From an uncultured Planctomycetaceae bacterium (GTDB lineage: Bacteria > Planctomycetota > Planctomycetia > Planctomycetales > Planctomycetaceae): 64,000 bases of DNA. Positions 18,650 through 35,700 of this stretch are shown here, piece after piece. The stretch spans positions 320,001 through 384,000 of the forward strand of contig CAWFGE010000012.1 of NCBI GenBank assembly GCA_963815195.1, in the 5' to 3' direction. Both the position numbers and the translations under genes were made by a program. How positions within the stretch are numbered: position 1 is the stretch's first letter; the number at the start of each line of letters is the position of its first letter. Below the pieces are notes generated by a model. That model ran no database searches. It was not told where the DNA came from and saw nothing but the letters and a program-made list of their open reading frames with translations.

Positions 18650-21600
18650 ATGCACGAGTATGACCCATACGCGGCCACGCGAAAACTTCCGCCGGGCGCC
18701 GACCTGTCCTTCCTGGAATCGGCCGACGATGGATTTGCGCTCAACGAATACCCGGAGCGAATCAGCCGTTACCGCGTCGAGCGCGTGTTGGGCCGGGGAG
18801 GGTTTGGCCTCGTCTATTTGGCTTATGACGATCAACTTCAGCGGCGGGTGGCGATCAAAGTGCCCCATGCGTGCCTCGTGACGGAAGGCCGCCAGGTTGA
18901 ACTGTATCTGGCCGAAGGCCGAATGGTGGCTGCGCTCGACCACCCGCATATTATTCCGGTCTACGACGTGGGGCAGATGCCCGAGTTTCCGATCTTTATT
19001 GTTTCGAAGTTTATCGAAGGGACGGATTTGGCCAAGCGGCTGAAGCGGAGCGGCATCAGTGCGTTCGCGGCGGCGGAATTGACCGCGACCGTGGCCGAGG
19101 CGCTGCACTCGGCCCACAAGCGGGGCATCATCCACCGCGACGTCAAACCCGCCAATATTTTGATCGACCGGGAGGGACAGCCGCATCTCGGGGATTTCGG
19201 GCTGGCACTCCGCGAGCAGGAAATCGGCCAAGGACCGAGAACGGCGGGGACGCCGGCTTACATGTCGCCCGAGCAGGCCCGCGGAGAAGGCCACCGCGTG
19301 GACGGCCGCAGCGATGTGTTTTCGCTGGCGGTTGTGTTTTATGAAATGCTGGTCGGCCGCCGCCCGTTTTCAGGCGATACTCAGCAAGAATTGCTGGAGC
19401 ATATCGCCGCACAGGACGCCCGCCCGCCGCGCCAGGTCCTGGATGCCATCCCCAAGGAAATGGAACGGATCTGTTTGAAGGCGCTCTCCAAGCGCGCCAG
19501 CGACCGTTACACCACCGCCAAAGATTTCGCCGAGGACTTGCGGCATTTTCTGCATGATCGGCCTCGTAATTTGGTGCCCAAAGCCGGGGAACCGCTTGCG
19601 TCGTCGGAGCCTGAAACGGTGAAGGCATCGGACGTCTGGCCGTCGGCGACTCCCAGTGCCACCAGCCGGCCTTTGAAAATCGTTCCCAAGGGGCTGCGGT
19701 CGTTCGACGAGCACGACGCCGACTTCTTTCTGGAGCTGCTTCCCGGCCCGCGCGATCGGGACAATCTGCCGGACTCGATCCGTTTCTGGAAAGCCCGCCT
19801 CGAGGAAGCCGACCCCGACAACACGTTCCCCGTGGGATTGATCTATGGTCCGTCGGGTTGCGGGAAAACGTCGTTCATCAAAGCGGGCGTGCTTCCCTGC
19901 CTTTCCGAAAGCGTGAATGCGGTTTATGTCGAAGCGACGCCGGACGACACCGAGGATCGGCTGCTCAGGCGGCTGCGAAAGCGATGTCCCGGCCTGCCCG
20001 AACATCTGAGCTTGAAAGACACCGTGACCGCCTTGCGCCGCGGGCAGGGAACGGTTTCCGGGCGGAAGGTGGTGATCGTTCTCGACCAATTCGAGCAGTG
20101 GCTGCACGGAAAACAGAACCAGGAGGACGGCGAACTGATTCAAGCGTTAAGGCAATGCGACGGGGGCAGCGTGCAATGCCTGGTGATGGTTCGCGACGAT
20201 TTCTGGCTCGCCGTCAGCCGGTTTATGAAGAGCTTGGAGATCCGGATCGTCGAAGGCCAGAACAGCGCGCTCGTCGATCTGTTCGATACGGATCACGCCT
20301 GCCGAGTGCTCGCCGCGTTCGGGCGGGCCTTCAATCGTCTCCCGGAAGATTCCAGCAAGACGACCCCCGAGCAGACGCAATTCCTAAACCAAGCCGCGGA
20401 GGGCCTCGCGGAAAACGGGAAAGTGATTTGCGTCCGGCTGGCGATTTTTGCCGAGATGATGAAGAGCAAACCCTGGACTCCCAAAGCCCTCAAGGAAATC
20501 GGCGGAACGGTGGGCGTGGGGGTGACCTTTCTGGAAGAGGCGTTCATGGCGTCGACCGCTCCCCCGTCGCATCGGATGCACCAGCAGGCGGTGCGGGCGG
20601 TGCTAAAGGCGCTTTTGCCCGAACGGGGCAGCCGGATCAAAGGGCGGATGATGTCCTATGACGAGCTGCTCGCGGCGTCGGGCTATCAAAATCGCACGGC
20701 GGATTTCGACGCGGTGCTCCGCATCCTCGACAGCGAGGTGCGGTTGATTACTCCCAGCGATTCGGAGGAAGAGGCCGAGGGAAAAGGCGCGCCGGCGGAA
20801 TCGCCCGCGAAGAAATCCTATCAACTGACGCACGACTTTCTCGTGCCCTCGCTGCGGGAATGGCTGACGCAAAAGCAGAACGAAACCAGCCGGGGCCGGG
20901 CGGAATTGCTCCTGGCGGAACGGGCGCAACTCTGGCAGGCGAAGCCGGAGTCCCGGCAACTGCCCGGCTGGTACGAGTGGATTTCCGTCCTGATTCTGAC
21001 CAACTCCAAGTTTCGGACGCCGGCGGAACGGGCGCTGCTTCGCGCTTCGCGGTCTTATTACACGCGGAAGCTGGCGTTGTTTCTGTTGATTTTTGTGGGT
21101 CTCGCCTGGTCGTTTTTCGCGGTGCGCGCGACTCTTGACGAGCGCGCGGAGCAGCAATACGCCCAGGTGCTGGTGGACCGGTTGCGCACGGGAAAGATCG
21201 AGCACCTCAAAAACGTTTTGGCCGAGATGACTGCCGATCACCGTTACGTGCTGCCTGAGTTGACCGAGATGCGGGCGTTGCCGGAACGCGATCGCCGTTG
21301 GCGGGCGGCGCTGGCGCTTCTTCCGATGGACCCATCTCAGGCGGCATATTTGAAAAACATTCTCTTAGAGCCTCAAACCAAGCCGGACGAGTTCCTGCTT
21401 ACCAGGGACATGTTGAACCGCTATTCGAGGGGCTCGGCGTCCTGGGCCGCAGAGACCTTCCGCGACAAGCCGGCGGCGAGGTTTCGCATGGCGTGTGCGT
21501 TGGCGGGCTGGGAACCGACGCATCCCCTGCTCCGCGAAGAGGCCGGGCTCATCGGGGAACAGTTGTTGGATCAACCCACGGTTCTCTGCCCGCAATGGTG

Positions 21601-23014
21601 CGAGGCGCTGTATCCCGCGCGGGCCAATCTTCTGGATTGGCTGACCGGCGCCTTTCCGAAGCTCACACAGCCCAGCCAGATCTTCAATTGTGCCCATGCC
21701 ATCTATAGGTTTAGCGAGGAAGATTCCGAGAGAATCGTCGGCCTGCTTCCCGAGGCGGACGAGACCCAGTCGCGGGCGCTCACGGAAATCCTCCAGGTCG
21801 AGAATAATCCCGGAACCGCCGAGCAGATTCGACGGCTGTTGGAACAATGGAAACGGCGGAATCCCGGCACACAGCCCGCAAAGGATCGCGTCGCCAAAGC
21901 CATCGTGAACCTGGCCTTGACGTTGTGGCTGATGGGGCACGATGCGGAACTGGCGGATTGCTTAGAGGAACGCGGCGATCCGAGACGCTGCACCTACGCC
22001 CAAGTCGCCATGAGCCAGCCGCGCGTGCCGGCGGAGCGACTCCTTGTGATCTTAACGTCCCCGGACGGAGAGGCGATGCGGCAAAGCGTGTTGACGGCCC
22101 TGGCCGATCGGGTGGAGACATTGCAGCCGGCCCAAAAAGAGACGCTGCTCGAAAGGGCCAAAGAATTGTACGTCTCCGATCCCGCGTCCGGCGTGCATGC
22201 GTTGTGCTGGCTGATTTTGAATCGCTTGGGTCAAAAGGCCTGGCTTGCCGACACGAACCGCGGCTTCGAGGGCGAGGCGTCGCCGGGGCGAAACTGGTCG
22301 CACACCCACGGCGGGCAAATGTTGATTCACTTCGATGCCGGCGGGAGACGGGTCGGCCTGTCGAGCACCGAGGTGACGTTCAAACAGTTTCAGCGGTGGC
22401 TCACAACCTATGCCCACGACAAGGACGTGGATGGAGGCGAAGACGATTCGCCAGCCGGCGGACTCTATGTCCATCAAAGCATTCAATACTGCCAGTGGCT
22501 CAGCGAACAGACCCTTCCCAAGGAGGAATGGTGCTACCCGCCGCTTTCCGAATTGAGCCGCAAGAACCTGCAGCCCGTGGAAGGCTATCTGGACCGCTTG
22601 GGCTACCGGCTGCCCACGGCGGAAGAATGGCGAGCCGCCTGTGCCGCGGGCACGACGACTCCGCGGTTTTACGGTTACGATCCCGATCTCACGCCGCGGT
22701 ACGCGTGGGACATCTCCAGTTCCCGCGCGAGATTGATGCCGGCCGGTTCGCTGCTTCCGAATCGGGCCGGCTTATTCGACATGTACGGCAACGTGCGCAA
22801 AATCTGCGCGACGCCCGTGGATGGGAAAATCCGATATACCGCCGCCAGCTCGTCGGCTCGTTCGAAACCTGCGTCGTCCGTCACGAGATTCCGCGCCGCC
22901 TTGCCGCTGACCATCAACAACAGCGATCCCTATTTGGGATTTCGAATCGCGCGCACGCTGCCGCCCCCCAAAGATCAGGAAAAATCTGAAAAATTCTTGC
23001 TGGATTCGAGGTGA
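18650..23014 (+). CDS. Ser/Thr kinase - STAND-class (nSTAND1-like) NTPase - TM - helical region - FGE-sulfatase/C-type-lectin-fold protein (~1,450 aa)
   Basis: Kinase: GRGGFG, VAIK, HRDVKPAN, DFG, GTPAYMSPE. NTPase: GLRSF..HDA.FF, GPSGCGKTS, IVLDQFEQ, YQLTHDFL...W. TM: KLALFLLIFVGLAWSFFAV. FGE-like: TEVTFKQF, YRLPTAEEW, PNRAGLFDMYGNV, GFRIART. Confidence 0.88.
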   Translation: MHEYDPYAATRKLPPGADLSFLESADDGFALNEYPERISRYRVERVLGRGGFGLVYLAYDDQLQRRVAIKVPHACLVTEGRQVELYLAEGRMVAALDHPHIIPVYDVGQMPEFPIFIVSKFIEGTDLAKRLKRSGISAFAAAELTATVAEALHSAHKRGIIHRDVKPANILIDREGQPHLGDFGLALREQEIGQGPRTAGTPAYMSPEQARGEGHRVDGRSDVFSLAVVFYEMLVGRRPFSGDTQQELLEHIAAQDARPPRQVLDAIPKEMERICLKALSKRASDRYTTAKDFAEDLRHFLHDRPRNLVPKAGEPLASSEPETVKASDVWPSATPSATSRPLKIVPKGLRSFDEHDADFFLELLPGPRDRDNLPDSIRFWKARLEEADPDNTFPVGLIYGPSGCGKTSFIKAGVLPCLSESVNAVYVEATPDDTEDRLLRRLRKRCPGLPEHLSLKDTVTALRRGQGTVSGRKVVIVLDQFEQWLHGKQNQEDGELIQALRQCDGGSVQCLVMVRDDFWLAVSRFMKSLEIRIVEGQNSALVDLFDTDHACRVLAAFGRAFNRLPEDSSKTTPEQTQFLNQAAEGLAENGKVICVRLAIFAEMMKSKPWTPKALKEIGGTVGVGVTFLEEAFMASTAPPSHRMHQQAVRAVLKALLPERGSRIKGRMMSYDELLAASGYQNRTADFDAVLRILDSEVRLITPSDSEEEAEGKGAPAESPAKKSYQLTHDFLVPSLREWLTQKQNETSRGRAELLLAERAQLWQAKPESRQLPGWYEWISVLILTNSKFRTPAERALLRASRSYYTRKLALFLLIFVGLAWSFFAVRATLDERAEQQYAQVLVDRLRTGKIEHLKNVLAEMTADHRYVLPELTEMRALPERDRRWRAALALLPMDPSQAAYLKNILLEPQTKPDEFLLTRDMLNRYSRGSASWAAETFRDKPAARFRMACALAGWEPTHPLLREEAGLIGEQLLDQPTVLCPQWCEALYPARANLLDWLTGAFPKLTQPSQIFNCAHAIYRFSEEDSERIVGLLPEADETQSRALTEILQVENNPGTAEQIRRLLEQWKRRNPGTQPAKDRVAKAIVNLALTLWLMGHDAELADCLEERGDPRRCTYAQVAMSQPRVPAERLLVILTSPDGEAMRQSVLTALADRVETLQPAQKETLLERAKELYVSDPASGVHALCWLILNRLGQKAWLADTNRGFEGEASPGRNWSHTHGGQMLIHFDAGGRRVGLSSTEVTFKQFQRWLTTYAHDKDVDGGEDDSPAGGLYVHQSIQYCQWLSEQTLPKEEWCYPPLSELSRKNLQPVEGYLDRLGYRLPTAEEWRAACAAGTTTPRFYGYDPDLTPRYAWDISSSRARLMPAGSLLPNRAGLFDMYGNVRKICATPVDGKIRYTAASSSARSKPASSVTRFRAALPLTINNSDPYLGFRIARTLPPPKDQEKSEKFLLDSR

Positions 23015-23072
23015 TCTATCGTGTATGTAGGGTGTTATTGTGTCTTTGAACATCCACTTGCGAGGAACACCC

Positions 23073-23690
23073 ATGACATCAGAACCGAGTGGCTCCGGCA
23101 GCGGGTCGCGTCCCTGCGGGACGGGCTGTGCGTGGCGGTATGACAACGATTTGGGCTGTTGGGTCGCGCTCCACGGTTGTGCCGACGAGGACAAGTGGTG
23201 CGATCCTCCCGCTTACAGCTCTTACATCAAGAGTGCGGCCGCATATAAACGGGAACCCGCTTGCACAAGCTGTTACACGCCGGAGGAAATGCAGATGCTC
23301 GCCCGCGCCGCCGCGGAAAGCAAGCTGGCGGTGAAGCGGTTCGGCGTGATTATTCCCAAGATCAGCGAGCCGGCTCGCATTGGCCGCTTCTCCGACGTCG
23401 TGGCCCTCGGCGGCACGAACCAGATTTATTCGCCGACCTATGGCTGGCTGGTCAAGGTGCGGAGCAAATTCCAGACGCCCGGGTCCACACCCCAACCCTT
23501 GACCGTGGAGCCGACCAACCAGCCCGTGGTTTGCCCGAAATTCAGCGAAACGGCTTTTTCCGTGGGCATCATGCTGGAAGAAGGGCCGGGAGTGCTTGAA
23601 CAATACTGGCTCAACGTCACGGCCTCCCAGGGGTGGAGCGTGTTGACCACCGCGGAATGGGACGTGCTCGTCGTACGGATGGCGGTTTGA
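23073..23690 (+). CDS. Hypothetical protein with N-terminal Cys/Trp-rich domain (205 aa)
   Basis: GAGGA RBS then ATG. CGTGCAWRYDNDLGCWVALHGCADEDKWCDPP...CTSC (7 Cys in ~55 aa). No signal peptide. Confidence 0.7.
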   Translation: MTSEPSGSGSGSRPCGTGCAWRYDNDLGCWVALHGCADEDKWCDPPAYSSYIKSAAAYKREPACTSCYTPEEMQMLARAAAESKLAVKRFGVIIPKISEPARIGRFSDVVALGGTNQIYSPTYGWLVKVRSKFQTPGSTPQPLTVEPTNQPVVCPKFSETAFSVGIMLEEGPGVLEQYWLNVTASQGWSVLTTAEWDVLVVRMAV

Positions 23691-23727
23691 CCTGGTGGGA
23701 TCGCTCGGCTTCGGGATCAGATTTTTC

Positions 23728-25081
23728 ATGGACACCTTCGACGTGTTTGACCGGGTTTGCTGTATCAACCTCGACCGCCGGCCCGACCGCTGGGAGCGGT
23801 TTGTGGAAGGACTCCCGGCCGATTGGCCCTTTCGTCCGGTCGAGCGCGTGTCCGCCGTCGATGGAGAGCGGGTCCCGCCTCCCGGCTGGTGGCGTCCGGG
23901 CTCCGGCGCGTGGGGCTGTTACCGGACGCATCTGCGGTTGATCGAAGACGCCCTCAATCAGGGCGTGAACTCCCTCCTCGTGTTCGAGGACGATGCTCTC
24001 TTTGGAAAAGACTTCGCGAGCAAAGTTCGGCGGTTTCTCGCACGGGTGCCGGCCGATTGGGGCATGCTGTATCTGGGGGGACAGCATCTGAAATCCAAAG
24101 AGGTTCCTCCGCGGGCCGTCAATGAAGAAGTCTGCGAGCCTTACAACGTGAACCGCACGCACGCGTTCGCCCTCCGCGGCCCGGCGATGAAAGCGGTCTA
24201 TCGCCACCTGTGCTCCAATGCCTGGCGTGCGGGACATCACATCGACCATCACCTGGGGCAGTTTCTCGAACGGCACGATCCGCGTTACCCGGTGTATTGT
24301 CCGCGGAACTGGCTCGTGGGGCAGGCGGGGGGAGACTCGAACATCACGCCGCAAACCTTTCCCGATCGGTTCTGGGACGGCCTCGGCAAAATCGATGTGA
24401 ACCGGCTTCCCTTTACGGCGATTGTCGGGCTGCACTCGTCCGGCTCGTCGGCCTTGGCCGGCCTCGCGTGGGGGCTCGGCCTTTATCTTGGCGAGAGATC
24501 TCGGCGGATATTACGGCAGCCAGCCCGGCGGGAAATGCGGTTACGAGGATGCGGAGCTTACCGAGATCTGCGAGTCCCTGATTTCCTTTCCCTCGTGCCG
24601 GCGAATCAATGATTCCGAGCAAGCGGGGCGTCTGCGGGACTGGATTCAATCCCGGCGGGTGCAGGCTCATCAATTCAAGGCGGTGGCCGGCGGCAAATAT
24701 CCGCAGCTCTGCCGATTGGGGCCCGACCTCCTGGATGTCTGCGGAAGCCAACTCCGGCTGATTATCTCGGAACGCCCGCTGGAGGATTCCATTCGCTCGC
24801 TCCAAAAACGCTGCCCGCACATGGATCCGGCCCGGATCGAAGCGCACCAGCGCTGGCTCAAAGCGGGCCTGGACGATTTGCGGACAAAAGTGCCCCCGCC
24901 GCGCCAGCTTGTGGTGCGCTACGAGGACTTGCTCGAACAGCCGGAGCGGGAAGCGCGCCGCGTGGCCGGTTTTCTGAATCTCAAGGACCGGGACATGCCT
25001 TGCCGGATCGCCAAGGCGGTCGCGCCGATTCACCTCTACGCGCACCAGCGAAAGAAAGCGGAATCGCAGACGCCGTCCTGA
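23728..25081 (+). CDS. Glycosyltransferase family 25 - sulfotransferase-like fusion (frameshift at ~24495)
   Basis: GT25: CINLDRRPDRW, RVSAVDG, GCYRTH, VFEDD, WGMLYLG, HIDH. The same frame continues into a PAPS-loop-like IVGLHSSGSSALAG. After a shift in GGCGAGAGATCT it continues GKYPQL...ERPLEDSIRSL...VRYEDLLEQP. Confidence 0.75.
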
Positions 25082-26794: not shown

Positions 26795-29700
26795 ATGTTG
26801 CGCAACTGGCTGGCGGAATGGAAACGAATCGGACGAGTTCTCAGCACACAAAGTCAACGGGACCGCCGGCCGCGGTTCCGCTCCGCGAGAGTCCCCCACC
26901 ACGCGGAGGTGTTGGAGGATCGGACCTTGCTGTCGACGTTTTATGTGGACAACATCGGCGATTTTGTCGTCACGACGAATAATGCCGGCGGTGCGGGCGC
27001 GGACCCGGGGGACATCGTGACGTGGGACTCGACCGGCACCCACGCGGCGGGGGCGGTCGCGGGGTTAACGTTCGGGACGGATGCTTTCTCGACCATTCAA
27101 GACGCCGTCAATGCGGCGGCCGCCAGCGCGGATGCGACGGACACCATCGACGTCGCCGCCGGGACGTTTACGGAGAACGTCAGCATCAATACGAATGTGG
27201 ACATCGTGGGGGCGGCGGTGGCGGGACCGACGATTGTGGATGGAGCAGCTGCCGGTTCGGTGATCGTCATCATGGCGGGCGACACCGTCACCTTGGACTC
27301 GCTCACGATTCAAAACGGGTCCGCGACCAACGGCGGCGGGATCAACAACGCCGGCACGCTGACGCTCACCAACAGCATTGTTCAAAACAACTCCGCGACG
27401 ACCAACGGCGGGGGGATCTTCAATGCGTCCACGGGCATCGCCACCGTGACGGACTCCTCGCAGATCTCCGGCAACATGGCCAGCGGCAGCGGGGTGCCGG
27501 AGGGCGGCGGCGGAATCTTTAACCAGGGCGGCGGGATGATCACGGTCGATGGCTCCTCCATCATCCAAAACAACACCGCCACCGACAGCCGGGGCGGCGG
27601 GATATTCAACGGCCCAACCGGCACGCTGCTTGTTCAAGGCGGATCGCAGATCACAGGCAACCATGCAGGCACCGTCGCCTCTACCCAAAGGTTCGGCGGC
27701 GGGATCTTTAACGCCGGCACAGCGACAATTCAAGGCGGAGCCCAGATCGCCGGCAATACCGCCATCGATCAGGGCGGCGGCATCTATAACGAATCCAGCG
27801 GCACGATGACGGTTCAAGGTGGATCCCAAATCACCGGCAATATCGTCAACAATGAAGGTGGCGGGCTCTTCAACCAGACCTTCGGGACACTGACAATCCA
27901 GGGCGGAACCCAGATCAGCGGCAATTCCGCCGGCGATGACGGGGGCGGGATTTACAATCTCGCCACTCTCACCATCGATAATGCCACCATCGGTGGAACG
28001 GGCGCCGGGAATACCGCCGGCAGCGGCGGCGGCGGGATCTTCTTTGATGATGGGACCATCACCATCACCAACACCACGATTGACGGGAATACCGCAAACA
28101 GTGGCGGTACCGGCTTGGGAACCCACGGCGGGGGCGGGATTTATGTTGATCTTGGGGAGACCTTGTCGCTCGATAGCACCGTGAGCGTCACGGGCAACAT
28201 CGCGCTGCTCAATATTGGCAGGGGAGGCGGGATTTTTGTCGGCACAGGAGCCACCCTGACGGCCACCGGCACCACCATCAGCGGCAACTCCGGATTCGAA
28301 GGCGGCGGGATTCTCAATCTCGGATCGGCGACGATCCAAAACGGCTCGATGATTACCGGAAACTCCGCCTCCGGCGTCGGTGGCGGAATTGAGATTAACG
28401 GCGGCGGGACAATGACCGTGGATGCCTCGACGGTCAGCAATAACAACGCAGTCATCGGCGGCGGGATCGATGTTGTGGTCGGCACGGCGACCATTCAGGG
28501 CGGCTCGATGATCACCGGCAACGCCTCCACCCTTGACGGAGCCGGCATTCGGCTCGAATTCCAGGGCACGGTTATCATTCAGGGCGGATCGATGGTCACC
28601 GGAAACTCGGCCGGAAACGAGGGCGGCGGAATTTCCAGCAATGCCGGCATTGTCACGGTGGATGGATCGAGTGTCAGCAACAACATGGCCGTCAGCCGGG
28701 GGGCCGGCATTCTCAATAACCAGGGCCTGACGACGATTCAAAACGCCTCCACGATTGCCGGCAACACGGCAATGGCTGAAGGCGGCGGGATCTACTCCAA
28801 CGCGGGCACGGTCATGATCCTTTCGGGTAGCCAAGTGACCGGGAACTCTTCGACGAGCGGGGGCGGTATCTTCGGTGCGGCTGCCGGCCTGACAGTGGAC
28901 GATTCCACCATCGGCACCAACACCGCCGCCATGGACGGGGGCGGGATTTGGAGCAGCGGGACGCTAACGGTCTTGGGCGTCACCAATATCAGTGGGAACA
29001 GCAGCGCGAATGGCACCGGCATTGATGTGGCCAGCGGCACGGCGTTCGTCAACGGCACGATTGACGGTAACGGCATAATGGACGGCAGCGCCGACATGGT
29101 GCTCGTTGAAAACGGCGGTCTCCTGGGAGGGACGGGCACGATTGACGGAGCCGTGGAAGTGGAATCGGGCGGCACTGTCGCCCCCGGAACCAGTCCCGGC
29201 ATTTTGAGCGTCGCGAACACCACGTTGATGGCCGGTGCGAATTTCAACGTGGAAGTCAACGGCGTCGCCACCGCCGGGACGGATTACGATCAACTCGACG
29301 TCACGGGCACCGTGGACATCAACGGGGCGTTTCTCGTTACGTCCGGCACCGTCACCGGCACGATGGCGGGCGATGCGGTCGTCATCATCAATAACGACGG
29401 CAACGAAGCCGTCGGCGGCGAGTTTGACGGCCTGGCGGACGGCGACACGGTGATCATCAACGCCGAGACGTTTCGCATTTTCTACAAAGGCGGCGACGGC
29501 AACGACGTGGTGCTCGCCGCTTCGCCCGCGATGATCGATACCATCTATGTCAATGACGACTTCACCGGGACCGACGGCACGATCATCACCGATGCCGACC
29601 CCAACACGCCGGGCGACCAAGCCGCCGTCATTGGCGTCAACGCGTTCGACACCATTCAGGAAGGCGTGGACGCCGTGGCTTCGGGCGGCTCGGTGTTCGT

Positions 29701-32700
29701 TACCGACGACCTTTCGACGGACGGTCCGGGAACCTACACCGAAAACGTCACAATCAACAAGGACGTGACGATTCAGGCGACCGAACTCGACCCAACCGCC
29801 GTCATCGTGGACGGCAGCGCCGCCGGTTCCGTGATCACCATTACCGCGGGCAACACGGTCACGCTCGATTCGCTGACCATCCAAAACGGGTCCGCGACGA
29901 ATGGCGGCGGCATCAACAACGCCGGCACGCTGACGCTCACCAACAGCATCGTTCAAAACAACACCGCGACGACCAACGGCGGGGGGATCTTCAATGCCTC
30001 CACGGGCATCGCCACGGTGACCGGCGCGTCGGTGATCTCCGGCAACACGGCCAGCGGCAGCTTGGTGCCGGAGGGCGGCGGCGGAATCTTTAACGAGGGC
30101 GGCGGGATGATCACGGTCGATGGCTCCTCCATCGTCCAAAACAACACCGCCACCGCCAGCCGAGGCGGTGGGATCTTCAACAGCCTGGACGGCACGTTGA
30201 TTGTTCAAGGCGGAGCGCAGATCAGCGGCAATGCCGCGGGCACGGTCCCCGGGACCCAACGGTTCGGCGGGGGAATCTACAACCGCGGGACAGCGACGAT
30301 TCAAGGCGGAACCCAGATCACGGGCAATACCGCCACCGATCAGGGCGGCGGCATCTACAGCGCCTCGATGGGCACGACGACGGTTCAAGGCGGAGCGCAG
30401 ATCACGGGCAATAGCGCCAACAATGATGGCGGCGGGATCTTCAACAACGCCGGCGGGACACTGACAATCCAGGACGGAACCCAGATCAGCGGCAATACCG
30501 CCAACGATGACGGGGGCGGGGTTTACAATCTCGGCGATCTCACCATCGATAGCGCCACCATCGGTGGAACGGGCGTGGGCAACACCGCCGGCAGCGACGG
30601 TGGCGGGATTTACTTCGATGATGGGACGGTGACCATCACCAACGCGACCATCGACGGCAACACCGCGAGCGGTAGCGCCTCAAACAACGGCGGCGGCGGG
30701 ATTTTTGTCGATGATGGGGAGACCTTATCCCTGAATAGCACCGTGAGCATTACGAACAACGTCGCCAACGGCGCGCTCGGCTCGGGCGGCGGGATCTTCG
30801 TCGATACGGGAGCCGCGCTGAGCTTGACCGGCACGACGGTCACCGGCAACACCGCCAAACGCGCCGGCGGCGGCATCGAAGACAACTCCGGCAACACCAC
30901 GTTTGTCACATTGACCGACGCGACGTTGAACAACAACGTCGCCCTGGGCACGGGATCGGCCCCCGGCAACGGCGGCGGCCTGCACATCACGGGCGCCGGC
31001 CAGGTGACGATCAGCGGGGGGACCATCAATAATAACACCGCCGCCGAGGAAGGCGGCGGCCTGTGGAACTCCGGCACGGGCGATGGTGGCCATTCAGAAA
31101 GCGGCGTAGGTGGCACGCTCATCCAAGGCAACGTGGCCAACGGCGACCTCACCGAGCAGGGCGGCGGCGGGGTGTTCAACGACGGCGGCACGATCGATCT
31201 CGTGGGGGCGGCGATCAATGCCAATATCTCCACAGCCACGGCCACCGGCAACGGCGGCGGCGGGATCTTTAACCGCGGTACCGTGAACCTCATTGGAACG
31301 AACGTCGCCGGTAATCAGGCCGCGAACGGCTCTGCGAGCGGCGGCGGGATCCTGAATTCCATCGGGGCGACGCTGACGGTGAGCGGCGGCAGCATCACCG
31401 GCAACACCGCCAACCGCGCGGGTGGCGGCATCGAAGACAATTCCGGCCCCGGCCTCGGTGTGACGCTCATCGATGTCTCCTTGGACAACAACGTCGCCCA
31501 AGGCGCCCCGGCAACGGCGGCGGCCTGCATGTCACCGGGGCAGGCGATGTCTCCATCACGGGAGGCACGGTCAGCGGCAACAGCGCGGCCCTCGAAGGCG
31601 GCGGCCTGTGGAACGGCACCGGCACCATGACCATCACCGGCACGACCTTCATCGGAAACACCGCCAGCGGCAATGCGGCCGACGACGGCGGCGGCGCGAT
31701 CTTCAACAACGGCGGCACCCTGAACATTACCGACGCCATCTTCTCCACCAACGTGGCGGATGGCGCGCTGGGCAGCGGCGGCGGGATCTTTAATAACGGC
31801 GGAATTCTGTTGCTCGTCAACTCGCAAGTGGGATCCGGAAGCAGCGGGAATACGGCCACTTTCAATGGCGGCGGGATCTTCAGCACCGGCGGAGACGTGA
31901 CCATTCTCTCGAGCAGCATCAGCTCAAACGTCTCGGGTGCGGCGCTCATCGGCACCGGCGGCGGCGGGATCTTTAACGACAGCGAGATGACGATTGTCGG
32001 CTCAATCATCGATCGCAACACGGCCAACAACGGCCTGGGCAACGGCGGCGGCATCCTTAACAGCCCCAATGGAACCTTGACGGTCGTTAGCAGCGACATT
32101 TTGGACAACACCGCGGCGCGGGCCGGCGGCGGGATCGAGAATAATGCCGGTTCCCTCACGCTCACAAATGTGACGATGGCGGGCAACATCGCCGGGGTCA
32201 ACGGCGGGGCCGTGCATCAAAGCGGGGACGCCGTCGTCAACGTGCTCGGCGGCTTGGTGCAGAATAACACCGCCGGGCAGGAAGGCGGCGGCTTCTGGAA
32301 TTCCTCCGTCGGGACGATGACGATCAACGGCACGACCGTCATGCAAAACACCGCGAACGGCACCGACACCGAGCAGGGCGGCGGCGGCGTGTTCAACGAC
32401 GGCGGCGTCGTTACGATCCTTAACGCGACCGTCACGAAAAACGTCGCCTTGGGCGATGGTCCAGGCGAAGGCGGCGGCGGGATCTTCAACGACGGCACGA
32501 TGTTCATCACCAATTCCTCGATCACCAACAACGAGGCCTTGAACGGCCTGGGCAACGGCGGCGGGATCCTCAACTCCGACGGCGGCACGCTGACCATCAC
32601 TGGCGCGGGCACCGAAATCTCCGGCAACGAAGCCGCCCGCGCGGGCGGCGGCATCGAGAACAACGGCGGCGTCGTGACTCTCACCGATGTATCTCTCAAC

Positions 32701-35700
32701 GACAACACCGCCGGCATCAACGGCGGAGGACTCCATACGAGCGGCGCGGGCGTGGTGGCCATCAACGGCGGCGAAGTCATGGGCAACACCGCGGGCGAAG
32801 AAGGCGGCGGACTCTGGAACTCGTCCGCCGGCACGCTGACGATCGCCACCAGCAGCCTGGGCGGCACGACGATCTCCGGCAACGTCGCCAACGGCAATGG
32901 CACCAAGCAGGGCGGCGGCGGGATCTTTAACGACGGCGGCACAATCTCGATCACCGGCGCGACCATCACCGACAACACCGCCACCGCAACGAGCGCGGGC
33001 AACGGCGGCGGCGGGATCTTCTTGAACGGCGGCACCGTGTCCTTGACCGACGCCAATATCACCGCCAATACGAGCGGGGCCGACGGCGGCGGGATTTTGA
33101 ATTGCCTCGGCACGGTGACCGTCAGCGGCGGCACCATCTCCGACAACACCGCGGCCCGCGCGGGCGGCGGCATCGAAAACAGCAGCGGCCTCCTCACGCT
33201 GAACGATGTGTCCCTCAACGAGAACACCGCCGGGGTCAACGGCGGCGGGCTCCATCAAACGGGAGCCAGCACCGCGACCGTCACCGGCGGCACGGTCTCC
33301 GGAAACTCGGCCGCCCAGGAAGGCGGCGGTTTGTGGAACTCTTCCACCGGCACGCTCACGGTCGACGGCACCACAATCGACTCGAACACCGCCAGCGGCG
33401 CACTCGCCGATCAAGGCGGCGGCGGAGTGTTTAACGCGGGCGGCATGGTGTCGATTACCGGTGCCACCGTTTCCAACAATGCCGCCGATGGAGGCGCTCG
33501 GTTCCGGGGGCGGGATTTTCAATGATCTGGGCGGGACGCTCTCCGTCGAAAACTTCTCGACGATCCTCGGCAACTCGGCCGCGGCGAACGGCGGCGGGAT
33601 CTTTAATGCCGGCAACCTCACCGTGGACGGCTCCACCATCGGCCAGTTCCTCGTCGAGAACGATGTTTGGTCCCAAACCGGAACCGCGGGCGATTTGGCG
33701 TTTGCGTTTGTGGATACCCAAAACTCCACCGCGGGCCAGGATGTGCTGTTGGATGTCTTGGAAAACGACGGCAGCACCGTGATCGACAACTTCAACGCCG
33801 GCATCTCCGCCGGCGGAAGCGTCACTCAAAGTGGGAACGTGTTTTATAACGTCCAGTCCAATCCCTTCGGCGGCGATGAGGTCACGCCTTATCAAATCTA
33901 CGCCAGCGTCGTCGATCCGGGCGCGGCGATTGCCGAGTCCGAAAGCAACGACACCTCCGGCACCGCGGACCCGGTTACCGCAGAAACCCTCGTCACCGGC
34001 GATTTGGGTTCCGCGACCGATGCGGACTTCTTTTCCATCAATGTCGCCGCGGCCGATACTTCGCTGGTGGTGATTTTGGATTCGCTCACCGGCACCGATG
34101 CGGTGGTGGAACTCCTGGATACCGACGGCACCACGGTGCTCGCGAAGGGCACGGTGGACGCCTTCTCGCTGGACAGCGCTGCGATTGCTTCGGGGTTGTC
34201 TGTCGGGACGTATTTCATCCGCGTGACGGGCAAGGCCGGGGCCACGGGCGGTTATCAATTCGTGGCGAAGACCGTCACCGCGGCCGACCAGGTGGCCGAG
34301 TCGGAACCGAACAACACCCCGGCCGATGCCACCGCCTTGCCGGCGGGACAATTCGGCGAGGGCAACCTGATCGATGTCGGCGCGAACACGGCCATTAACG
34401 GCGGCGGGCTTTTCAATGCCTCGACCGGCACGGCCACCGTCACGGGCTTTTCGCAGATCAGCGACAACACCGCGACCGGCAATGCCTCGACCAACGGCGG
34501 CGGCGGGATCTATAACGACGGCGGCACGGTCACGGTCGAGGATTTTTCCATAATCGATCACAACGCCGCCACCGGCACCAGCGGTTCGGGCGGCGGGATC
34601 TTCAATGGCACCGGCGGCACGCTCGCGGTGACGGACGCCTCGATCACCGATAACACGGCGGAACGCGCCGGTGGCGGGATCGAAGACAATTCCGGGGCCG
34701 GCTTGGGCGTGACGTTGACCAACGTCACGCTGGACAACAACGTCGCCCAAGGCACGCCCGGCAACGGCGGCGGCTTGCACGTCACCGGAGCCGGCGATGT
34801 CTCGATCACGGACGGCACCGTCAGCGGCAACAGTGCGGCCCTCGAAGGCGGCGGCCTCTGGAACGGCACCGGCAAAATGACCATCGACGGCACCATCATC
34901 AGCGGCAATACCGCAAGCGGCGATGCGCTCACCGACGGCGGCGGCGGAATCTTCAATAACGGCGGCACGCTCCAAGTCGGACAGACGACGGCTGTGACCA
35001 TTTCCGAAAACATTGCCGACGGCACGCTGGGCAGCGGCGGCGGGATCCTCAATCTCTCCGGAACAACGGTCGTCAACGGCAGCACGATTTCCAATAACGC
35101 GGCGAACCGCGCCGGCGGGGGCGTCGAAACCAACGCCGGCAGTGTAACCCTCACGGACAGCGACCTCACGATGAACACGGCCTTCATCAACGGCGGCGGC
35201 TTGCACGTGACCGGGGCGGGAACCGTCGGCATCACCGGCGGCACGGTGAGCGAGAACTCCGCCAGTCAGGAAGGCGGCGGACTCTGGAACGGCAGCGGCA
35301 CGATGACCATCGACGGCGCGACCATAGACTCCAACACCGCCAGCGGAGCCGGCTCCGATCAAGGCGGCGGCGGCGTCTTCAACGCGGGCGGCACCGTCGC
35401 CATTCAGAACAGCACGTCGATCACCAATAACCTTGCCGATGGCACATCCGGCAGCGGCGGCGGGATTTTGAATGATGTGGGCGGCACCCTGACCGTGAAC
35501 GGTTCCTCCATCACGGGCAACACCGCCAACCGCGCCGGCGGCGGAATCGAAGACAACTCCGGAGCCGGCTTGGGCGTGACGCTGACCAATGTGACGTTGG
35601 ACAACAACGTCGCCCAGGGCACGCCCGGCAACGGCGGCGGCCTGCATGTCACCGGGGCGGGCGATGTCTCCATCACCGGCGGAACCGTCAGCGGCAACAG

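Follow-up and report, generated by a model that had tools for sequence, protein, structure and literature searches.

What does a compact cluster of three planctomycete genes do, and does it belong to a described system, when it encodes a kinase-STAND receptor, a small Cys/Trp-rich protein and a glycosyltransferase fused to a sulfotransferase-fold domain? The window analysed here, a stretch of 64,000 nucleotides (positions 320001-384000 of contig C12 of the source genome, G000), holds one such cluster. Judged by its sequence, the locus joins a receptor of a known class to a glycosylation cassette that is related to phage genes and undescribed.

Organization of the Locus

The three genes (Table 1) are co-oriented and separated by gaps of 58 nt (genes 1 and 2) and 37 nt (genes 2 and 3), in agreement with the initial annotation. 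The borders named there, a divergent hisD and a convergent ECF sigma factor gene, were found as well, together with a downstream 223-aa ORF, while the anti-sigma label had no Pfam support. The direct neighbours of the trio are hisD, a family-4 membrane glycosyl transferase (PF00953), a sulfatase, a phosphodiesterase and the ECF sigma factor. In the flanks read around the trio we saw no phage structural genes, the cassette there being chromosomal, and neither known defence genes nor a defence island. A promoter and terminator scan of the locus stayed at chance level.

Gene 3 had been annotated as one fusion ORF; in the window it lies in two open frames (GT25, 23728-24612; sulfotransferase part, 24422-25081), though its homologs are common, single, intact fusions of 440-470 aa (about 450 aa). 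A 702-nt contig from run X1, otherwise identical to the window, has one base fewer at position 24495. This support is a single contig at a depth of 3.8, X1 being possibly the source sample, and runs X2, X7 and X8 gave little coverage of the locus. Because of the X1 contig and the intact homologs, the split is most likely an assembly error; a pseudogene was judged less likely. A receptor paralog on contig C10 is likewise split in this assembly.

Table 1. Features of the three-gene locus, in positions of the window.
Feature	Position	Strand	Description	Basis
Gene 1	18650..23014	+	1454 aa; Ser/Thr kinase, nSTAND1, TM, helical solenoid, FGS	Pfam, motifs, hydropathy, AlphaFold
Gene 2	23073..23690	+	205 aa; proposed glycan acceptor / kinase-linked adaptor	Profile search, alignment, model
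Gene 3, part 1	23728..24500	+	GT25 and start of sulfotransferase-fold domain	PF01755; 70% identical to L001 over 255 aa
Gene 3, frameshift	24490..24500	+	Single-base insertion; assembly error likely	Intact homologs; X1 contig
Gene 3, part 2	24500..25081	+	Sulfotransferase-fold domain, other frame	PF13469, 27.8 bits (cut-off 27); 56% identical to L001

Recurrence of the Trio

Relatives of all three genes, where named, come almost entirely from planctomycetes. Co-location in other genomes had been put forward as a test of the trio; when it was run, the gene 1-2-3 order was also found in a Rubripirellula MAG (L001; identities of 48, 38 and 70/56%) and in a Pirellulaceae MAG (L102), in which gene 1 is split over two frames, and the pairing of receptor and glycosyltransferase proved to be wider. 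In genome G296 (locus L127), genes 1 and 2 are accompanied upstream by divergent genes for GT4 and GT2-NPCBM-methyltransferase proteins. Gene 1 adjoins gene 2 in all four loci for which a full gene 2 and DNA were available (window, L001, L102 and L127), and gene 3 stands third in three of these four, the exception being L127. Two further pairs of genes 1 and 2 may exist, to judge only from contigs that are equally long (41,707; 18,822). The fusion enzyme itself, originally counted as a partner in the trio, turned out to be mainly a phage gene that other glycosyltransferases can replace, as in G296.

The trio is missing at the hisD and ECF flanks in all three same-genus genomes, where hisD and ECF lie on separate contigs, and a full-length gene 2 is present in only 2 of the 401 genomes of the class, G000 included. 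By these sequence comparisons the trio is real, conserved and rare.

A Membrane Receptor of a Described Class

Gene 1 matches Pkinase at residues 41-290 (157 bits, with HRD and DFG catalytic motifs present), nSTAND1 at residues 347-529 (PF20703, 71.7 bits, cut-off 27.1, with an intact Walker A motif, GPSGCGKT, and an intact VLDQFE) and FGE-sulfatase (FGS, a C-type-lectin fold) at residues 1248-1405. The last match (PF03781, 50.7 bits, cut-off 23.3) is divergent compared with that of the C10 paralog (132 bits). These domains and motifs bear out the kinase-STAND-lectin-fold receptor of the initial annotation, which had overlooked a single TM helix at residues 807-825, preceded by four basic residues and followed by two in the hydropathy analysis. 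AlphaFold predicted a helical array for residues 830-1206; the FGS part was of low confidence, with five alignment rows. From sequence and hydropathy we infer a receptor in the inner membrane, with the kinase and STAND domains inside and the helical-FGS part outside.

The C-terminal 625 residues have four close relatives (42-54%), those of L001 and L102 among them, and the next ones follow at about 30%. Among trio members the FGS domain is about as conserved as the other gene 1 domains (51-61%). A search of G000 for a diversity-generating element turned up nothing resembling a template copy of the final 414 nt of gene 1, and the flanks read around the window trio hold no reverse transcriptase. 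The proposed PADLOC check (2023 library) matched gene 1 in its kinase domain only (PD-T4-6, mad6 and others), found nothing for genes 2 and 3, and returned no full known defence system for the trio.

NTPase-FGS conflict systems, including those with S/T/Y-kinase effectors, were defined by Kaur et al. 2021 (PMC8195603). Gene 1 alone is, by its domains, a member of this class, since in the systems set out in the relevant part of that paper a kinase effector, nSTAND1 and a C-terminal FGS likewise stand in one chain. Forms with a TM helix and a periplasmic lectin domain are predicted in a section of PMC10907252, which also describes CLec-STAND proteins as not yet characterised. The DGR-diversified versions covered in that section differ from the window locus, in which no DGR or EAD partner was seen; a DGR often accompanies NTPase-FGS systems but is no fixed part of them. 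The window and L001-type loci differ further from the NTPase-FGS systems, as far as these are laid out in the sections concerned, in adding genes for a Ser-rich protein and for glycosyl-, sulfo- and methyltransferases. The earlier statement that no described system is known with this set of genes concerned the trio as a whole; for the combination of receptor and glycosylation cassette, a literature search of incomplete coverage found no describing paper and the searched supplementary files of PMC8195603 gave no match.

Gene 2 and Its Family

The gene 2 protein consists of an N-terminal Ser/Gly tract, a six-Cys/Trp hairpin module (residues 15-67) and a beta domain (residues 87-202), and the aligned family has in common the Ser tract, the six Cys, a W-x-W...W pattern and the beta domain. 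It has no match in Pfam, PADLOC or PHROG, and no signal peptide or TM segment; a signal-like hydrophobic segment was likewise absent by hydropathy from 12 of the 12 family members checked. A single-sequence search returned gene 2 itself only, the Atlas gave only hits below 0.8, and the relatives, 17 clusters at 50% identity, were reached only via a two-sequence profile. A metagenome scan yielded 71 pattern matches, of which 0 were confirmed. The weak matches of an earlier search were noise, G296 excepted, and the match in G424 was merely the Cys module, within a prophage. On this sequence evidence, gene 2 founds a small undescribed family.

With the gene 2 model (pLDDT 87), Foldseek returned nothing at E<=0.001 from either PDB or BFVD, and the best VIA-align result was a Z of 3.1 to C2-like sandwiches. 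The absence of a clear fold match does not establish a new fold; gene 2 offers a small, confidently modelled domain with no clear solved relative. A complex prediction of the receptor C-terminal part with the gene 2 protein scored 0.00, its controls not folded.

The Fusion Enzyme and a Fourth Gene

The GT25 domain of gene 3 scored 28.7 bits with PF01755 (cut-off 24), and its EDD motif is present in 119 of 119 homologs. Among solved structures, the family comes closest to human procollagen galactosyltransferase 1 (COLGALT1) and mimivirus R655, which match its GT25 domain with E values of about 2e-12 and 3e-6. One of the two modifies a protein; only about 120 residues align with gene 3. PAPS sulfotransferases usually have a basic residue in the 5'-PAPS (5'-phosphosulfate) loop. 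In the gene 3 homologs this loop has Ser in 108 of 119 and Arg in 4 of 119, and the PF13469 match is barely over its cut-off. The PAPS sulfotransferase of the initial annotation keeps its near-cut-off fold match, while sulfation is uncertain because of the atypical Ser in the loop. The fusion enzyme of L001 has no hydrophobic export signal by hydropathy. A fourth gene, encoding a DXD-glycosyltransferase, follows in L001, where it is fused to a methyltransferase, and in L102, where it is apparently split.

Genes 3 and 4 in Phage Tail Modules

Genes 3 and 4 are, by their sequence context, typical phage tail-module genes, a point that had escaped the initial annotation. Of 8000 candidates that were scored, 655 proved to be homologs of the gene 3 fusion. 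Among 599 viral stretches with a gene 3 match, 405 were confirmed; the best 80 of these 405 were used, and 58 distinct viral loci were counted, each with 2.5 kb upstream. A Ser-rich ORF, defined by at least 10 Ser per 20 residues, preceded the full fusion by no more than 2.5 kb in 30/33 distinct viral loci, and GT25-only or cut matches in 6/25. The control counts were 4/44 further upstream, 3/38 downstream, 14/58 on the opposite strand and 9/200 in host windows. This context supports the earlier idea that the enzyme has a Ser-rich acceptor encoded beside it. All four annotated loci have a tape-measure gene a short way upstream, with a few genes in between; one of them, L132, is a prophage with a GT25-only gene. 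Full-length homologs of the fourth gene occur in seven viral loci (38-43% identity), and the one directly behind the fusion in phage locus L027 shares 41% identity with its L001 counterpart.

Virion glycosylation in mycobacteriophages was reportedly described by Freeman and colleagues in 2023. In these phages, according to work cited in part of PMC12619734, glycosyltransferases lie right behind Ser/Thr-rich structural proteins; by analogy, the phage Ser-rich proteins beside the fusion are putative glycosylation substrates. The tail cassettes of planctomycete phages draw on the same GT25-sulfotransferase and DXD-GT/methyltransferase families as the trio loci, whereas the window cassette is chromosomal and has a receptor in place of tail genes. 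Gene 3 proteins of the trio type group in a single clade (SH-aLRT 100), so the trio would have arisen once. In this tree, which was drawn at midpoint with no root test and so does not show the direction of transfer, viral rows occupy the deeper branches.

Several of the viral Ser-rich proteins carry a Cys/Trp module resembling the N-terminus of gene 2. The two modules aligned with an hhalign probability of 92.9 (reversed control, 0.1), a value that is inflated because the phage modules had been selected with a gene 2-derived pattern. In the reverse search from the phage module the best gene 2 family member had E=0.023, and the window gene 2 was not listed. The case for homology between gene 2 and the phage module is moderate and not proven.

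Receptors and Glycosyltransferases in a Wider Survey

We surveyed 80 regions (79 distinct) around high-scoring STAND matches, drawn from the best 150 of 248, with long frames favoured and the neighbours unseen at the time of choice. A GT2 or GT4 neighbour was found in 14 of the 79 receptor loci, or in 16 when GT9 and methyltransferase genes were counted, against an expected GT2/GT4 rate of 2.7-3.9% obtained from random intervals of G000 only; the loci include kin, and the neighbour scan was cruder for 67 of them, some at contig ends. The other 63 had no such neighbour, and none of the 79 regions held a gene 2 or a GT25 gene.

A second cassette was present in 10/79 loci. It pairs a small Trp-hairpin protein, which often begins with a hydrophobic segment, with two genes, a GT4 or GT2 gene and a further one, each encoding a Cys-rich N-terminal domain. 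Its GT2 match in L277 was under the cut-off, and an eleventh such locus (L134) came from a separate search. The module of this cassette aligned with the phage module at a probability of 84.8 (reversed, 3.4), and a search with it returned a viral poly-Ser protein unprompted (E=0.005); compared directly with gene 2 it gave a probability of 1.5. Four more loci have GT2 genes, downstream in L287 and L288 and upstream in L285 and L290, where they stand behind a Gly/Ser/Cys-tailed protein, L290 having a sulfotransferase as well. Two receptor loci carry GT9 and methyltransferase genes.

The FGS tree placed 17 of the 19 cassette-linked receptors, that of the window among them, in one 21-row group (SH-aLRT 87) that omits the cassette-linked L127 and L288. 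On this tree the cassette label required 4 changes, compared with 9 on the STAND tree and 16.3 in shuffles, and the STAND tree was also clustered for it (0/500 shuffles); both are quick trees and the shuffles ignore kinship. The FGS trees exclude five receptors with no same-frame FGS end, and the change counts exclude four with no seen flanks.

Proposed Function and Alternatives

Given the phage context, the GT2/GT4 neighbours at 14/79 receptor loci where 3-4% would be expected and the clustering in the FGS tree, it seems likely on sequence grounds that receptor and glycosylation cassette are functionally coupled at all. As to what the coupling is for, we tentatively favour an anti-phage module that would sense outside and modify inside, built from a known receptor type and a cassette shared with phage tails, an account that could easily prove wrong. 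We prefer it because it respects the predicted topology, with FGS outside and the acceptor and enzymes devoid of export signals. The FGS domain would bind a glycan or glycoprotein of the type that the cassette makes, most plausibly on an incoming phage tail tip, and binding would lead to STAND oligomerisation and kinase activation. The target of the kinase might then be the Ser tract of gene 2, whose protein may mimic the Ser-rich tail substrate of the phage and dock or restrain the enzymes. The cytoplasmic GT25-sulfotransferase-fold enzyme, with the DXD-GT/methyltransferase where present, would decorate gene 2, so that its Ser tract may be contested by kinase and glycosyltransferase; alternatively, the same enzymes might mis-decorate the phage's own Ser-rich tail proteins.

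PMC8195603 proposes that FGS domains target glycosylated molecules of invaders and that GT4 enzymes serve as effectors in conflict. The likeness to these effectors (section 15) is that a glycosyltransferase is proposed to act alongside STAND and lectin domains against invaders. In that section the GT4 domains are presented as parts of fusions with STAND or ternary-system proteins, whereas the receptor loci here have separate GT25, GT2, GT4 or GT9 genes and a dedicated Ser-rich partner. Further related literature, consulted in part, includes 10.64898/2026.01.04.697583, 10.1101/2022.07.19.500537 and PMC9546862. With still more reserve, one may imagine that planctomycetes possess a family of immune or identity loci centred on glycans. 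In these, one clade of lectin-fold STAND receptors would be joined to exchangeable protein-glycosylation cassettes from phage tails, and a Ser-rich tail mimic would serve as decoy or acceptor, making the loci a bacterial counterpart of guard and decoy receptors directed at virion glycosylation. If true, phage virion glycosylation would be linked to a host sensing system. Candidates for the ligand class and for the kinase substrate, along with the enzymes that would make the glycan, sit together in one compact putative operon, which makes the lectin hypothesis directly testable.

A write-and-read identity mark, along the lines of the reading first given to this DNA, now appears rather unlikely; the enzymes would build a glycan, sulfated or methylated, on the gene 2 protein or the cell surface, and the receptor would read it on self or neighbours. 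The lectin-domain clade does track the presence of a cassette, cassettes differ between loci as a recognition code might, and the six conserved Cys of gene 2 would suit an exported, disulfide-bonded module. The Ser-rich acceptor beside the enzyme also survives from that reading, through the phage context. The predicted topology, however, separates reader from writer: the lectin domain lies beyond the TM helix, and neither the 12 gene 2 members nor the L001 fusion has a hydrophobic signal (maximum hydropathy, 0.58-1.44), which makes a direct writing and reading of the mark doubtful. No export genes were seen in the four loci, and the atypical PAPS loop of the gene 3 homologs also counts against a sulfated mark.

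We also think it unlikely that the cassette is a phage-derived passenger which landed beside the receptor once or a few times and was kept by linkage only, though the single clade of trio-type gene 3 proteins, the few genomes with a trio and label shuffles blind to kinship would all agree with this. Linkage at the 3' end alone would carry a downstream cassette along with the FGS end; as the whole cause it is disfavoured because upstream and divergent cassettes exist, though L127 lies outside the FGS group.

That the locus is an ordinary switch outside conflict, with kinase and glycosyltransferase competing for one Ser tract and the receptor answering an environmental or envelope glycan, is improbable: the receptor family is very common (the STAND region of gene 1 has matches in 132/401 class genomes), its neighbours are mixed and the window has no defence island, but the accessory genes are patchily distributed (gene 2 in 2/401; trio missing at 3/3 same-genus flanks), the enzymes are of phage type, and the reverse transcriptases found beside 3/79 receptors fit a conflict reading of the family.

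Genes Adjoining Related Receptors

At three of the compared loci around related STAND-FGS receptors (L219, L251, and L283), and also at L222 and L284, reverse transcriptase and Avd-like genes lie immediately behind the receptor, an arrangement that is the already described form of these receptors linked to a diversity-generating element (DGR). A second cassette recurs behind the receptors at L134, L237, L253, L257, L271, L272, L275, L276, L277, L291, and L292. It consists of a small Trp-hairpin protein, a GT4/GT2 gene, and a family of roughly 370 aa without a Pfam match. Both enzymes begin with an unannotated Cys-rich domain, which also has weak matches in the viral loci L034 and L036.

At L285 and L290 the receptor is preceded by a GT2 gene and, before that, by a protein with a low-complexity tail. 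The Cys-rich proteins of L254 and L255 contain about 20 Cys per 160 aa and gave no match in the Pfam comparison. In the source genome, the reading frame of a gene 1 paralog with the architecture kinase-TIR-nSTAND1-FGS is broken into two frames, and no gene 2 was found among its neighbours.

Features of the window and of the compared loci
Feature	Location	Remarks
Conserved unannotated protein	L285:3407-4003; L290:2897-3460	Gly/Ser/Cys low-complexity tail at its end
Cys-rich proteins	L254:9364-9837; L255:9404-9895; L289:9429-10163	Starts resemble signal peptides; directly behind related receptors
Receptor paralog	G000:C10:475700-480300 (= L128:5706-10321)	
1012-aa protein	within L002:553-6869; also L108	GT2 domain, long Ser-rich linker, C-terminus of no assigned family
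Gly/Asn-rich repeat protein, very large	window 26795-33525	At least two frames
Prophage module	L132 (G424:C1:4144000-4163999)	

Fusion and Surface-Type Proteins

At L002 and likewise L108, the GT25-sulfotransferase fusion is placed after the 1012-aa protein; next come three ORFs of 121 aa that resemble one another, and the C-terminus of the 1012-aa protein occurs there once more as an orphan copy. The arrangement resembles a polymorphic toxin-immunity array of the kind used between bacteria, built on the same combination of Ser-rich protein and enzyme; the putative toxin, a label that we infer, had no match in the Pfam comparison. The repeat protein of the window is of a kind typical of planctomycete surface proteins, and its first ORF is without a Pfam match. 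The prophage morphogenesis module of L132 looks intact, and it closes with the gene for a protein that has both poly-Ser and the Cys module, together with a GT25 gene.
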